Source: Chitinophaga pinensis
Lineage (GTDB): Bacteria; Pseudomonadota; Gammaproteobacteria; Burkholderiales; Burkholderiaceae_C
Reading direction: 5' to 3'
Length of the DNA stretch: 64,000 nt
Assembly (NCBI GenBank): GCA_943326015.2
Contig: CALPRQ020000008.1
Span: 4,369 to 68,368, forward strand
The position numbers were made by a program, and so were the translations under genes. This document shows, in pieces, positions 20,386 to 37,729 of this stretch. The stretch's first letter is position 1; each line of letters opens with the position of its first letter. The notes under the pieces are model-generated. The model saw only the letters and a program-made list of their open reading frames with translations, did not search any database and had not been told where the DNA came from.

Positions 20386-20458
20386 GCCGGCACTTGCGCT
20401 TACACTCCCCGGCCCGGGTTTGTCCCGACCCCTGTCCCATCGTTCACCGGAACCCGCC

Positions 20459-21814
20459 ATGAATGCTTTGACCCTGTTCCTGCCTTGCGCCGCCGGCGTC
20501 GAGGGCTATCTGGCCGCCGAGATCGAGCGCATCACGGGCCTGCCACAAACCAAAATGCTGGCCTCGCGCGGCGGCGTCGAGCTGCCCGGCAGCTGGCGCG
20601 ACGCGATGAAGCTCAACCTGCACAGCCGTCTGAGCCAGCGCGTGCTGGTGCGGCTGGCCTACCAGCCCTACCGCAGCGAGCATGACGTCTACGACATCGC
20701 GAGTGAGGTGGCCTGGGAGATCTGGTTCACGCCGCGCCAGACCATCAAGGTCGAGATCACGGCCCAGCACAGCCCGCTGCAGAGCCTGAACTTCGCCGCG
20801 CTGCGGGTCAAGGACGCGATCTGTGACCGCCTGCGCGACAAGCGCGGCGAGCGGCCGAGCGTCGACACCCTGCGCCCCGATGTGCGCATCTTCACCCACC
20901 TGACCCATGACGCCTGCACGGTCTACATCGACACCTCGGGCGAGCCGCTGTTCAAGCGCGGCTGGCGCGAGGACAAGGGCGATGCGCCGCTCAAGGAGAC
21001 GCTGGCCGCCGCCATGATCGCCGCCACCGGCTGGACTGGCGAACCGGGCCCGGACGGCCAGCCGGTGCCGCTCTACGACCCCTGCTGCGGCAGCGGCACC
21101 GTGCTGATCGAGGCCGCGCTGATGGCGCTGAACATCGCGCCCGGCGGCCAGCGCCGCTTCAGCTTCGAGAAGCTGCTGCCCTTCCAGCCTCATGTCTGGC
21201 AGGCGCTGAAGCAGGAGGCCAAGGACGCCGAGCGCCCGCTGCCGGCCCAGCCCTTCATCTTCGGCAGCGACATCGCCTTCCGCATGGTCGATTTCGCGCG
21301 CCGCAACGCCGAGCGTGCCGGCGTCATGCAGGCGCTCGAGCTGCGCGGCGGCGACGCGCTGCAGCGCATGCCGCCGACCCAGACCCCGGGTGTGCTGCTG
21401 CTGAACCCGCCCTATGGCGAGCGCATCGCGGCTGCCGGCGTCGCCGGCCAGCGCGCCGAGAGCCGCGCGGCCGGCCGTGGCGGCGCCCGTGTCTTCAGCG
21501 CCGGTGCCCCGGTCGAGACCATGCTGCGCGGGCGCGAGACCGCGCAGACTGCCGACGGACTCGAGAACAACGACTTCTTCGCCCAGCTCGCCTCGCACTG
21601 GAAGAAGCATTACGCTGGCTGGAGCGCCTGGTTGCTGACGCCCGACCTCAAGTTGCCGGGCAAGATGCGCTTCAAGGAATCGCGCCGGGTGCCGATGTGG
21701 AACGGTCCGATCGAATGCCGCCTGTTCCGCTTCGACCTGCTGGCCGGCTCGGCGCGCGGCAACCCGGCGGCTGGCAACGGCGCTGGCACTGACCACGCAG
21801 CAGGCCGGGCATGA
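20459..21814 (+). CDS. THUMP-domain 23S rRNA m2G2445 methyltransferase (RlmL-like)
   Basis: APLKETLAAAM, DPCCGSGT, NPPY; THUMP N-terminus; no RlmK half. Confidence 0.85.
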   Translation: MNALTLFLPCAAGVEGYLAAEIERITGLPQTKMLASRGGVELPGSWRDAMKLNLHSRLSQRVLVRLAYQPYRSEHDVYDIASEVAWEIWFTPRQTIKVEITAQHSPLQSLNFAALRVKDAICDRLRDKRGERPSVDTLRPDVRIFTHLTHDACTVYIDTSGEPLFKRGWREDKGDAPLKETLAAAMIAATGWTGEPGPDGQPVPLYDPCCGSGTVLIEAALMALNIAPGGQRRFSFEKLLPFQPHVWQALKQEAKDAERPLPAQPFIFGSDIAFRMVDFARRNAERAGVMQALELRGGDALQRMPPTQTPGVLLLNPPYGERIAAAGVAGQRAESRAAGRGGARVFSAGAPVETMLRGRETAQTADGLENNDFFAQLASHWKKHYAGWSAWLLTPDLKLPGKMRFKESRRVPMWNGPIECRLFRFDLLAGSARGNPAAGNGAGTDHAAGRA

Positions 21815-22227
21815 GCGCGCTGCCGCGCCTGGTCATCGACACCAACTGGCTGCTCGACCTCTGGGTCTTCGACGATCCGCGCGCGCAGCCGCTGCGCGCC
21901 GCGCTGGAAGCCGGCGAGCTGCGCTGGCTCGCGACGCCGCCGATGCGGATCGAGTTCGAGCGTGTGCTCGGCTACCCCGCAGTCGCGAAAAGGCTGCAGG
22001 CCGACGGCCGCGAGCCGGCCGCGCTGCAGGCCGAGTTCGAACGGCGGGTCGAGTGGGCCGAGCCCGCGCCGCGCGCGCCGGTGCGCTGTGCCGATCCGGA
22101 CGACCAGGGCTTCATCGACCTGGCGCTGCAGCAGGGCGCGACCCTGTTGAGCAAGGACAAGGCCGTGCTGGCCTGCCGCAAGCGCCTGCAGGCGCTCGGC
22201 GTGGCGGTCCAGCCGCATTGGCCCTGA
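21811..22227 (+). CDS. PIN-domain protein (VapC-like putative RNase)
   Basis: LVIDTN, EFERV, DPDDQGF, LSKD acidic residues; ATGA-coupled to the methyltransferase. Confidence 0.82.
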   Translation: MSALPRLVIDTNWLLDLWVFDDPRAQPLRAALEAGELRWLATPPMRIEFERVLGYPAVAKRLQADGREPAALQAEFERRVEWAEPAPRAPVRCADPDDQGFIDLALQQGATLLSKDKAVLACRKRLQALGVAVQPHWP

Positions 22228-22281
22228 AGTCGGCTTCAAACTGGCAGAAATACTCCTGAAATAATTTTTGTGTCAGATATG

Positions 22282-22309
22282 TTGACAATGGCGCCAGCTT
22301 GCCTATAAT
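22282..22309 (+). promoter_or_regulatory. Consensus sigma70 promoter with AT-rich upstream element
   Basis: TTGACA (22282-22287)-N16-TATAAT (22304-22309); both hexamers perfect. Confidence 0.85.
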
Positions 22310-22315
22310 TTATCT

Positions 22316-22422
22316 CAGGTTGTTTTGCGACAGCCTCCCGCTTTTCCTCCCTGAGCGGGCGCCTTAGTGTGTGACAGCAAAAAGGCTTCCCAGCCCCGGT
22401 CCTTTAGACCGGGGTTTTTTTT
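22316..22422 (+). ncRNA. Putative trans-acting sRNA (~105 nt)
   Basis: Lies between a perfect promoter and an intrinsic terminator; three hairpins; no plausible coding ORF; next gene is convergent. Confidence 0.7.
22394..22422 (+). terminator. Intrinsic terminator of the putative sRNA
   Basis: CCCCGGTC-cttta-GACCGGGG followed by T8. Confidence 0.9.
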
Positions 22423-22476
22423 CGTGTCGTTTTTCTAGCAGCGGCTGGCAAGAGAGAGCTTTGCGCCGCCGACCCC

Positions 22477-23217
22477 TCAATCGCGCCCACCGACCTGCAA
22501 CTGGTAGAGAAAGCGCTGCAGCAGCAACTGGTCACGCGGGTCCATGTCGACGAAGCGCGCGCCAAGCAGTTGCTGGCCGCTTGTTCTGCCGGCGTCCAGC
22601 CGGTTCTGCCACTGGAGGCCGAAGCGGATCGGTCCGAAGCCGGGCAGATCGAGCGAGCAATCCGGCAGCACGGTCCCCAGTTCCACCGGCAGGCTGGCCT
22701 GCGCGGGCAGGGCCAGGCACACGCCCCCGACGGAAATGTCGACCAGCCGCAGCGTCAGTCGGCTGAACTCGGCCTCGTCCCCGTCCGCCACGGCGCGGGG
22801 CAGCAGCAATTCGCAGAGCAGGGTGGCAGGACTCGGCACCCGAAAGAACTCGCGCCGCTGGACTCGGTGCACGCAGGGCGGCAGCCTGGCCGTATAAGCC
22901 AGCGCCTCGCCAGAAGCGTCAGGCTGCAGATGTTCGAGCAGAAAGCAGATCCGCGCGCTGGGGAGATTGGCCAGCACCATGACGGGATCGCCGGCTCGCA
23001 GCAGTCGCCTCGGAAGCGGCCCCGCAGCAAAGCGCAACACCAAGTCGCCGGATTCCCGGACCTCGGCGACGGTGGCCGCCACCGGCTCTGCCGGATCGCC
23101 CCAGCACTGCACGCTGGCCCGCCACCTGGCCAGATCCCGCATGATCTGGCGGACCTGCAAGGGAGAGTCGATCCAGAACGGATCTTCTGGCGGCGGCAGC
23201 AAACTGGAATGGGTCAT
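22477..23217 (-). CDS. Flagellar brake YcgR-like PilZ-domain c-di-GMP receptor
   Basis: QRREFFR (RxxxR) and DISVGG (DxSxxG); YcgR-like N-terminus; GGAAGG RBS before ATG 23217. Confidence 0.87.
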   Translation of the reverse strand: MTHSSLLPPPEDPFWIDSPLQVRQIMRDLARWRASVQCWGDPAEPVAATVAEVRESGDLVLRFAAGPLPRRLLRAGDPVMVLANLPSARICFLLEHLQPDASGEALAYTARLPPCVHRVQRREFFRVPSPATLLCELLLPRAVADGDEAEFSRLTLRLVDISVGGVCLALPAQASLPVELGTVLPDCSLDLPGFGPIRFGLQWQNRLDAGRTSGQQLLGARFVDMDPRDQLLLQRFLYQLQVGGRD

Positions 23218-23249
23218 GGTACCTTCCAATCGAGCAACTTTTCTAGCGG

Positions 23250-23318: not shown

Positions 23319-24509
23319 TCAGGCGCGCTTGGCCAGCACCTCGAAGGCCGGCAGGGTCTTGCCTTCCAGCACTTCGAGGAATGCGCCGCCGCCGGTCGAG
23401 ATGTAGCCGACATCGTCGGTGATATGGTACTTGGCGATCGCCGCCAGCGTGTCGCCACCACCGGCGATCGAGAACGCCTCCGAGTGCGCGATCGCCGACG
23501 CCATCATCTTGGTGCCGCCCGCGAACTGCGGGTACTCGAACACGCCGACCGGGCCGTTCCAGACGATGGTGCCGGCGTGCGCGATGATCTCGGTCAGCTT
23601 GGCCGAGGTCTTGGGGCCGACGTCCAGGATGCGGTCATGCGGGCCGACATCCTCGACCGGGATGCGGTTGGCGCGCGCCAGCGCCGAGACCTCGTCGGCC
23701 ACCACCACATCGACCGGCAGCGGCACTTCGGCGCCGCGCTCCTTCATGATGTCCATCACCTGTTGCGCCTCGCGCACCATCTCGGGCTCGGCCAGCGAGT
23801 CGCCGATGCGCTTGCCGGCCGCCAGCAGGAAGGTGTTGGCGATGCCGCCGCCGACGATCAGCTGGTCGACCTTGGACGCCAGGGTCTTGAGGATGCTCAG
23901 CTTGGTCGAGACCTTGGAGCCGCCGACGATCGCCACCAGCGGGCGCCTGGGTTCGAGCAGGGCCTGGGTCAGCGCGTCCATCTCGGCCGCCAGCAGCGGG
24001 CCGGCGCAGGCGACCGGAGCGGTCTCGGCGATGCCGTAGGTCGTGCCCTCGGCACGGTGCGCGGTGCCGAAGGCGTCGTGCACGAAGATGTCGCACAGCT
24101 TGCCCAGCTTGGCCGCCAGCTCGGGCTTGTTCTTCTTTTCGCCGACGTTGAGGCGGCAGTTCTCCAGCAGCACCAGCTGGCCCGGCGCGACGTCGAAGCC
24201 GCCGTCGACCCAGTTCGAGATCAGCGGCACCTCGCGTCCGAGCAGCTCGCCCAGGCGCTTGGCCACCGGAGCCAGGCTGTCCTCGGGCTTGAACTCGCCC
24301 TCGGTCGGGCGGCCCAGGTGCGAGGTCACCATCACGGCGGCACCGGCGTCGAGCGCCATCCGGATCGCCGGCAGCGAGGCGCGGATACGGGTGTCCTCGG
24401 TGATGTTGCCGTCATCGTCCTGAGGCACGTTGAGGTCGGCGCGAATGAAGACTCGCTTGCCGGCGGCCTGGCCGCTGGCGCAAATGTCGGAGAAACGCAG
24501 GAATTTCAT
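23319..24509 (-). CDS. pgk: Phosphoglycerate kinase
   Basis: [39 protein letters not shown]. Confidence 0.97.
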
Positions 24510-36971: not shown

Positions 36972-37339
36972 GGCTGTGCTCCTTGTGCGAGGTCGGTAGG
37001 GGGTAATCAAGCTGAACGGCTCGTGCTGCGTGCCAAGCGACAAGGCTGGACCGGCACAAGACAGGTTTCGGGGTTTCGGGGTTCCCGGATCGAGAACCAC
37101 GCGCTGGTCTGGCACAGGCGCAGCTGTGCCCGCGCCATCACAGGGCGTCAGAAAGACCAGCGGACAGCACAAGGGCTGGCCACAGGTCAAGGCTGTGACG
37201 TCAGGTCAACAGGGCAGGAAGATGTGCGCGATGCGCACGAAGGCGGGCGATGCAAGCATGGAATATTCGGCGAAAAGTTCTGGCCACCTTCCCCGGTAGC
37301 GTTTGAACGATCAAGCCATGCGCTCTGCGCATGACTCTC

Positions 37340-37550
37340 CTGTTGGCCGGTATCCGGGCTGACGGACAAAACCTCCAGAACCTTCCCAGACGACGCAGCG
37401 TCCAGTGGCGAATAGGAGGCGGGTCGTGAGGCACGACCGTCCGCTTACCGTTGCGGGGGCAGCGCTGGTTGGACTCGCTCCAGTGAGGGCGAATTTCCCA
37501 GCTTCCCGTTTAACCGCGGCCACAGAAGCGGGCCGCGAGCACCAACGAGA
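37340..37550 (-). ncRNA. Cobalamin (AdoCbl) riboswitch
   Basis: Minus strand GGTGCTC...TTAAACGGGAA...GCTGCCCCCGCAACGGT...GCCACTGG...CTGGGAAGG...AGCCCGGATACCGGCC; P1 GTTGGT/GCCAAC; TAGAAT -10 at 37554-37559; upstream of cob genes. Confidence 0.92.
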
Positions 37551-37729
37551 AATATTCTAACTTAGGAAATGACCCGTCTGCTGGCTGCCAGCACTGGTGA
37601 ATCGGCAGGCGGCTACTGGGGTCAGCCACAGGTCCCGCTTTGACCATGGACTTGCTGCTGCTGCAATAATGCGCCATGGAGCTGGCCGCGCCATGCGGCA
37701 AGTCATTTCACCTGATGGAGACGATTCCC

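Follow-up and report, generated by a model that had tools for sequence, protein, structure and literature searches.

The question raised by this locus is what a perfect housekeeping promoter transcribes where it has no protein-coding gene to serve. In a window of 64,000 nucleotides (the whole stretch of DNA analysed here), such a promoter is followed by a short stretch of predicted hairpins, which an initial annotation had read as an orphan small RNA (sRNA) of unknown family with an anti-Shine-Dalgarno loop. We find that the RNA at 22316/7-22422 (+) is the Malikia orthologue of anti-hemB (Rfam RF02837, 'Burkholderia RNA 7'), which is ncS04 of Burkholderia cenocepacia. It is an element already described, which a routine Rfam scan annotates as anti-hemB/ncS04, and not a new sRNA; overall, we consider it probable that it is a trans-acting RNA whose second hairpin (SL2) pairs through its loop with Shine-Dalgarno regions. 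The features on which this reading builds are, along the window:

20420-21814 (+): rlmL-like methyltransferase gene
21811-22227 (+): PIN-domain gene (Pfam PF13470, 5e-16)
22257-22281 (+): AT-rich tract 5′ of the -35 hexamer, UP-element-like (sequence reading)
22282-22287 (+): -35 hexamer TTGACA (sequence reading)
22304-22309 (+): -10 hexamer TATAAT, separated from the -35 hexamer by a 16-nt spacer (sequence reading)
22316/7-22422 (+): predicted sRNA of about 106-107 nt, orthologue of anti-hemB/ncS04 (from the position of the -10 hexamer, the ncS04 start, the U8 tract and RF02837)
22317-22336 (+): SL1, a 5′ hairpin of 8 bp with a 4-nt loop (folding; outside the Rfam RF02837 model)
22337-22359 (+): SL2, with the stem CCCGCU/AGCGGG (folding and RF02837 alignment)
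22343-22353 (+): loop of SL2, 11 nt, UUUCCUCCCUG (folding)
22346-22350 (+): CCUCC in the SL2 loop, the putative anti-Shine-Dalgarno seed (sequence and folding)
22361-22386 (+): SL3, a helix of GCCUU (22361-22365) with AAGGC (22382-22386) and a 16-nt apical region, AGUGUGUGACAGCAAA (folding)
22392-22422 (+): intrinsic terminator, a 10-bp stem at 22392-22416 followed by U8 to 22422 (folding)
22477-23229 (-): PilZ-domain (YcgR-like) gene, convergent with the sRNA (Pfam PF07238)
23319-24509 (-): pgk (Pfam PF00162)

The promoter scores 12/12 against the sigma-70 consensus, and it is unique: a search for TTGACA-N16-18-TATAAT on both strands of the 3.26-Mb genome (66% GC) returns this single occurrence, where base composition predicts 0.044. 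Across the Malikia genus, the 16-nt spacing is constant and the letters of the spacer vary; among the eight distinct sequences, the -35 hexamer reads TTGACA in seven and TTGATA in one, and the -10 hexamer deviates once, to TATACT. The AT-rich tract upstream is kept as TGAAATAATTTTTGTGTCAGATATG in the loci of the genus and, judged from its composition and place, may act in the manner of an UP element. The folded stretch of about 106 nt begins 7 bases after the -10 hexamer; we set the predicted 5′ end from the position of this hexamer and by comparison with ncS04, whose mapped start precedes SL1 by 1 nt, and the 3′ end from the U8 tract.

For the predicted RNA, folding gives four hairpins and a minimum free energy of -47.2 kcal/mol (z = -4.9), a stability that none of 200 shuffled sequences reached. 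Much of the initial annotation stands at this level: the perfect promoter with its AT-rich upstream tract, the two 5′ hairpins, the display of CCUCC in the 11-nt loop of the second, and the convergent orientation of the next gene, which encodes the PilZ-domain protein, are all as it had described. The segment that it took to be unpaired is instead the apex of a third hairpin, SL3, which is closed by GCCUU/AAGGC and belongs to the family consensus, and of its '8-bp GC terminator with U8' the U8 tract holds, the stem being one of 10 pairs, seven of them G-C. Its view that no coding frame lies inside the RNA agrees with our own search, where the sole closed frame consists of 15 codons from a TTG at 22320 and no reading frame is conserved across the homologues, none being common to more than 35 of the 142. 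The locus therefore carries, as proposed, a small non-coding RNA with its own promoter, a terminator at its end and CCUCC in a hairpin loop.

What does not stand is the orphan status. In a covariance-model scan of the window against Rfam 15, RF02837 matches 22334-22422 (+) with 65.9 bits against a gathering score of 49.5, at E = 3.6e-13 for the 64-kb window, and the alignment spans the full length of the model (positions 1-81 of 81). SL2 equals the family consensus exactly, save at variable loop positions, and carries CCUCCCUG in its loop; the GCCUU...AAGGC hairpin and the U-tract terminator of the family follow in their places. Directly before SL2 lies the 5′ hairpin, as in the mapped 105-nt ncS04. 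Since the initial annotation had itself named a match to a characterised family as the finding that would remove novelty, the RNA is not novel by its own measure.

Other assignments were considered and rejected. The Betaproteobacteria toxic sRNA family (RF02278), which the initial annotation had singled out for an Rfam check, scores only 22.3 bits where 50 are required, and its first stem, as aligned, contains five non-canonical pairs. The remaining Rfam matches over 22150-22550 at E ≤ 1, to ylbH (on the opposite strand), suhB/mmgR, GadY and the Trp leader, are at chance level and involve models that contain a terminator, and the models for ErsA, sX13 and Spot 42 gave no match in this interval. 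MtvR is a different sRNA, of 136 nt and confined to the B. cepacia complex, and no link was established to the sigma-E sRNA of Neisseria (74 nt, between NMB1826 and dnaE). Elsewhere in the window, the same Rfam scan placed a cobalamin riboswitch (RF00174) at 37328-37561 (-), with 85.4 bits against a cut-off of 31.5.

The family to which the RNA belongs has a substantial record. Comparative genomics with CMfinder yielded the anti-hemB motif in 2007, and the RNA was judged to be probably non-coding, with a terminator at its end (Weinberg, PMC1950547). In B. cenocepacia J2315, ncS04 is a 105-nt RNA with a northern signal, whose start was mapped by dRNA-seq and whose 3′ end was confirmed by RACE; across seven conditions followed by qPCR its level showed no significant change, and it is reported there, citing Ramos 2013, to bind Hfq (Sass 2017, PMC5688073). 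Its published sequence shows the same order of SL1, SL2, SL3 and terminator as found here, and it lies between a divergent hemB and a convergent engB. A 2026 preprint proposes control of heme synthesis by the family, and also reports copies unlinked to hemB (10.64898/2026.09.01.748597).

The RNA is widespread, and we regard the family as a near-universal, mostly single-copy sRNA of its betaproteobacterial order. RF02837 exceeds its cut-off in 31 of 41 relatives and in 211 of 301 genomes drawn evenly across the order, mostly in a single copy; with the limit set at E ≤ 1e-6, 111 of 143 genera have it, and a second copy is rare. An exact pattern covering SL1 and SL2 of the window recurs in Malikia spinosa strain 83 and in a metagenome-assembled genome of a Malikia sp., which assigns the window to a Malikia of the Comamonadaceae. 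A scan of named genomes recovered the core pattern in, among others, Dechloromonas, Thauera, Aromatoleum, Methylovorus, Thiobacillus, Sulfuricella, Vogesella, Paraburkholderia, Pandoraea, Hydrogenophaga, Hydrogenophilales and Oxalobacteraceae.

Two further loci of the same genome, both outside the window, resemble sRNAs of these families. On contig C21 (61627-61693, +; L002 1501-1567), a divergent second copy matches RF02837 with 32.7 bits, below the cut-off; it comprises a small 5′ hairpin, GGGAUUCGUCCC, and a hairpin with the loop UUACCUCCCUG, after which come a short GCC/GGC helix and a terminator. Its neighbours are purC and, at the end of the contig, an IS200-type transposase gene, both named by eye from their translations. 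At least five more genomes of the genus contain RF02837 matches in this score range (about 30-33 bits), and the C21 copy may be a sibling sRNA. On contig C27 (32936-32994, -; L003 1501-1559), a locus resembling the toxic sRNAs (RF02278, 45 bits against the cut-off of 50) combines a TTGCAA-N17-TATACT promoter with a 5′ UGUCUCCUC stretch and a strong terminator.

The part of the RNA that is most strictly kept is SL2. In a set of 30 unbiased homologues, which represents 17 families of the order, about 28 retain its CCUCCCUGAG, and in some lineages its stem changes from CCCGC/GCGGG to CCUGC/GCAGG, a compensatory substitution. SL1 behaves differently: the 142 homologues show 136 distinct sequences, yet in 138 of the 142 a hairpin of 4 bp or more directly adjoins SL2, with a median free energy of -8.3 kcal/mol and a median z of -2.4 in per-sequence folding. 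As it keeps its pairing while its sequence varies, SL1 probably serves to protect the 5′ end. When 24 diverse homologues were aligned with MAFFT, consensus folding yielded only SL2 and the terminator, because SL1 and SL3 differ in length among them, and the conservation of SL1 and of the four helices was therefore measured by per-sequence folding and on an alignment of close relatives. In the 11 close relatives aligned, 99.3% of the cells are paired over all four helices, and six pairs have changed on both sides in a compensatory way, half of them in SL1 and half in the terminator. Neither 500 shuffles nor slid registers came near this combination. The helix and apical sequence of SL3 are invariant in these 11 relatives, and its place is taken in other families by a hairpin of different sequence.

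The rlmL-like and PIN-domain genes precede the sRNA in all 12 Malikia-genus loci; in the window, the start of the second overlaps the stop of the first (ATGA, 21811-21814), so that the two are probably co-transcribed, reading towards the sRNA promoter. Downstream, pgk is found in 11 of the 12 loci, the twelfth showing rlmL and PIN only, and the PilZ-domain gene in only three. As pgk follows about 150-440 nt past the sRNA in most of the loci that have no PilZ-domain gene, we read the latter as a recent insertion or loss.

How the RNA would act can be put forward from these features. It would be transcribed on its own from the consensus sigma-70 promoter and the AT-rich tract and end at the intrinsic terminator, leaving a U8 tail suited to the binding of Hfq, with SL1 as the probable shield of its 5′ end. 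The SL2 loop, CCUCCCUG, would pair in trans with the G-rich Shine-Dalgarno regions (...CAGGGAGG...) of mRNAs from other loci and so block ribosome binding, probably with the help of Hfq. The Hfq dependence suggested in the initial annotation is plausible: an hfq gene is present in this genome, and Hfq binding is among the properties reported for ncS04, there by reference to earlier work (PMC5688073).

Target prediction brought out no conserved target. The best candidates for pairing with the SL2 loop among the translation-start regions of this genome, named from their translations only, encode Hsp70-like, ComM/YifB-like, lysozyme-like, LivG-like ATPase and VgrG-like proteins and a GroEL paralogue, and share no common theme. 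In a cross-genome screen for the exact 8-mer before ATG starts in five genomes, the 44 genes with a perfect CAGGGAGG-N4-10-ATG included no orthologues between genomes. Judged by crude gene calls and a home-made heuristic, 18% of the 50 targets predicted to bind the SL2 loop best begin with a signal-peptide-like N-terminus, compared with 6% of the genes that have a Shine-Dalgarno sequence (p = 0.003); the best binders of the 16S anti-Shine-Dalgarno tail, at 2-5%, show no such excess. This two- to three-fold enrichment is a weak hint that would fit an envelope-related regulon.

Three other readings of the locus have to be set against trans-acting pairing. The family name, together with the preprint on heme synthesis (10.64898/2026.09.01.748597), invites the view that the RNA is a cis-acting or antisense regulator of hemB, and gene order elsewhere is in line with it: hemB lies immediately upstream, in divergent orientation, in 106 of about 154 homologous loci, these 106 reading hemB-sRNA-engB with a convergent engB. 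In 18 more loci hemB alone remains, upstream of the sRNA; those of the 18 that come from unnamed relatives belong to other members of the window's bacterial family. This neighbourhood, from which the name derives and which is no part of the Rfam definition, is lacking here. The sRNA lies on contig C8 among the PIN, PilZ and pgk genes, hemB on C12 (61230-62189) and engB on C36, and no leftover RF02837 match was found near hemB or engB of this genome. As the sRNA is not beside hemB, antisense or cis action on it is excluded here, and for the window this reading, scarcely credible as a whole, is already refuted by the gene positions. Moreover, the hemB-linked copies are transcribed away from hemB, and the hemB starts are not complementary to the loop, whose complementary motif occurs in only 3 of 125 hemB start regions. 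Action on hemB or engB in trans was likewise rejected, the median for their start regions being -8.5 kcal/mol against -9.6 for shuffled sequences (about 120 loci). The name anti-hemB is misleading, because the RNA does not run antisense to hemB and is not predicted to pair with it either. Also very improbable is that there is no sRNA at all, the hairpins serving to terminate the rlmL-PIN operon and the convergent PilZ-domain gene, with the promoter a product of chance, or with a micro-protein as the product. A terminator between convergent genes and the 15-codon TTG frame from 22320 are what this account would use; it is contradicted by the above-cut-off family match, by a conservation of SL2 and SL3 across the order that goes well beyond a terminator, by promoter hexamers kept across the genus and unique in the genome, by the lack of a conserved reading frame and by the homologue ncS04 being a verified discrete RNA.

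The more serious competitor accepts the family and differs in what SL2 is for: as a structured decoy it would mimic the 3′ tail of 16S rRNA, titrating a protein that binds this tail or competing broadly for Shine-Dalgarno sequences. SL2 is nearly invariant in stem as well as loop over 17 or more families; pairing by a seed would not require so fixed a stem across the order, and recognition by a protein would fit it too. Many homologues read UCACCUCC in the SL2 loop, which we take to be the sequence of the 16S 3′ end; in the window, however, identity with 16S stops at CCUCC, and the base before it varies between A and U. The decoy could also draw on the lack of a conserved mRNA target, both at the hemB and engB starts and in the five-genome screen, and on the ancestral neighbour engB, the gene for a ribosome-assembly GTPase. 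That screen was nevertheless narrow, being confined to an exact 8-mer, ATG starts and five genomes, Hfq binding as reported second-hand for a homologue of the family (PMC5688073) is typical of pairing sRNAs, and anti-Shine-Dalgarno seeds borne in loops with conserved stems are known in ordinary pairing sRNAs, such as RcoF1/2 (PMC5449619). Balancing these points, we consider the decoy unlikely, and keep to an RNA that represses in trans by pairing through its SL2 loop.

Such a trans-acting RNA would, in much of the order, be made under different control than here. In other families, the promoter of most homologues is of the sigma-E type and stands at a constant distance from SL1: the strict form, GGAACTT-N16/17-TCTNA, is found at the right distance upstream of SL1 in 57 of 142 homologues, against 0.15 in shuffled sequences, and a looser motif in 95 of the 142. 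The window's copy shows neither this promoter, which would place it in the class of sigma-E-dependent sRNAs, nor a GAAC motif. The sRNA promoters of its bacterial family are all sigma-70-like or of the extended -10 type, with the perfect consensus in the Malikia genus. Given a housekeeping-type promoter in place of the sigma-E type, the RNA is probably constitutive here and not made upon envelope stress.

The regulator itself follows the same divide. We examined the rpoE regions of 14 genomes (loci L160-L173) and found a sigma-E-type motif (GAACTW-N16-TCTNN) 96-206 nt upstream of rpoE in 10 of the 11 from other families, as would be expected of a self-regulated sigma-E promoter, and in none of the three tested from the family of the window. 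RpoE of this family scores 242-251 bits or gives no match at E ≤ 1e-40, against 298-328 bits elsewhere. Divergence of RpoE and absence of the motif together suggest, at the level of sequence, that the whole sigma-E circuit has been remodelled in this family. We found no description in the literature of a sigma-E-dependent sRNA of the anti-hemB family, and a 2026 preprint on B. cenocepacia states that no RybB counterpart is known there. It is conceivable, and we put it forward as a tentative proposal that we would not favour over its opposite, that anti-hemB is the non-coding arm of the RpoE envelope-stress response in betaproteobacteria, uncoupled from sigma-E in the Comamonadaceae, including Malikia. 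The divergent RpoE, the missing rpoE motif and the relocated Malikia gene with the strongest possible housekeeping promoter all fit such an uncoupling. If it is true, a stress-induced brake on the synthesis of exported proteins became constitutive.

Among known systems, the toxic sRNAs of RF02278 (ncS03, ncS05, ncS27 and ncS62 of B. cenocepacia) resemble the RNA in being short, with a CU-rich, anti-Shine-Dalgarno-like sequence and a strong terminator, and in their proposed action, occlusion of the ribosome binding site; they differ in being double hairpins of about 60 nt with two CU-rich stretches, one of them at an unpaired 5′ end. RcoF1 and RcoF2 of Neisseria meningitidis, paralogous, Hfq-associated siblings with the target prpB (PMC5449619), are likewise betaproteobacterial and present their anti-Shine-Dalgarno sequence in a pyrimidine-rich hairpin loop, but no homology to them was detected and their genomic context is another one. 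The likeness to envelope-stress sRNAs is one of regulation. Sigma-E- or AlgU-dependent sRNAs of this kind include MicA, RybB and MicL in enterobacteria and ErsA in Pseudomonas aeruginosa. With these, the family shares the sigma-E-type promoter of most homologues outside the window's bacterial family, and by analogy those homologues may repress envelope proteins post-transcriptionally; the window's copy departs from them in its sigma-70 promoter, and shows no likeness to them in sequence or covariance models at E ≤ 1.

Closest is anti-hemB/ncS04 itself, with SL1, SL2 and its CCUCCCUGA loop, SL3 and terminator in the same order; both are non-coding and about 105 nt in length, have a promoter of their own and are U-rich at the 3′ end. 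The window's copy sits between the PIN-domain gene and PilZ/pgk, away from hemB and engB, and has a perfect sigma-70 promoter in place of the GGAACTT-N16-TCTNA found in most betaproteobacterial homologues and the TGGTATATGATA of Burkholderia. The apex of its SL3 has a sequence of its own, GUGUGUGACAGCAAA, common to the close relatives aligned, and its terminator loop, CCUUUAG in Malikia, does not contain UCCCCUUU, a second conserved C-rich motif that this loop carries in many sigma-E-promoter lineages (L004-L006, L014, L015, L020, L037 and others). The relocation, and the replacement of a sigma-E-type promoter by a consensus sigma-70 one, vary this theme modestly and in a manner specific to the lineage. 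The difference between the promoters, sigma-E-type in most lineages and sigma-70-type in Malikia and its family, offers a simple experimental handle: the same invariant loop should act on the same kind of target, linked to stress in one lineage and constitutively in the other.
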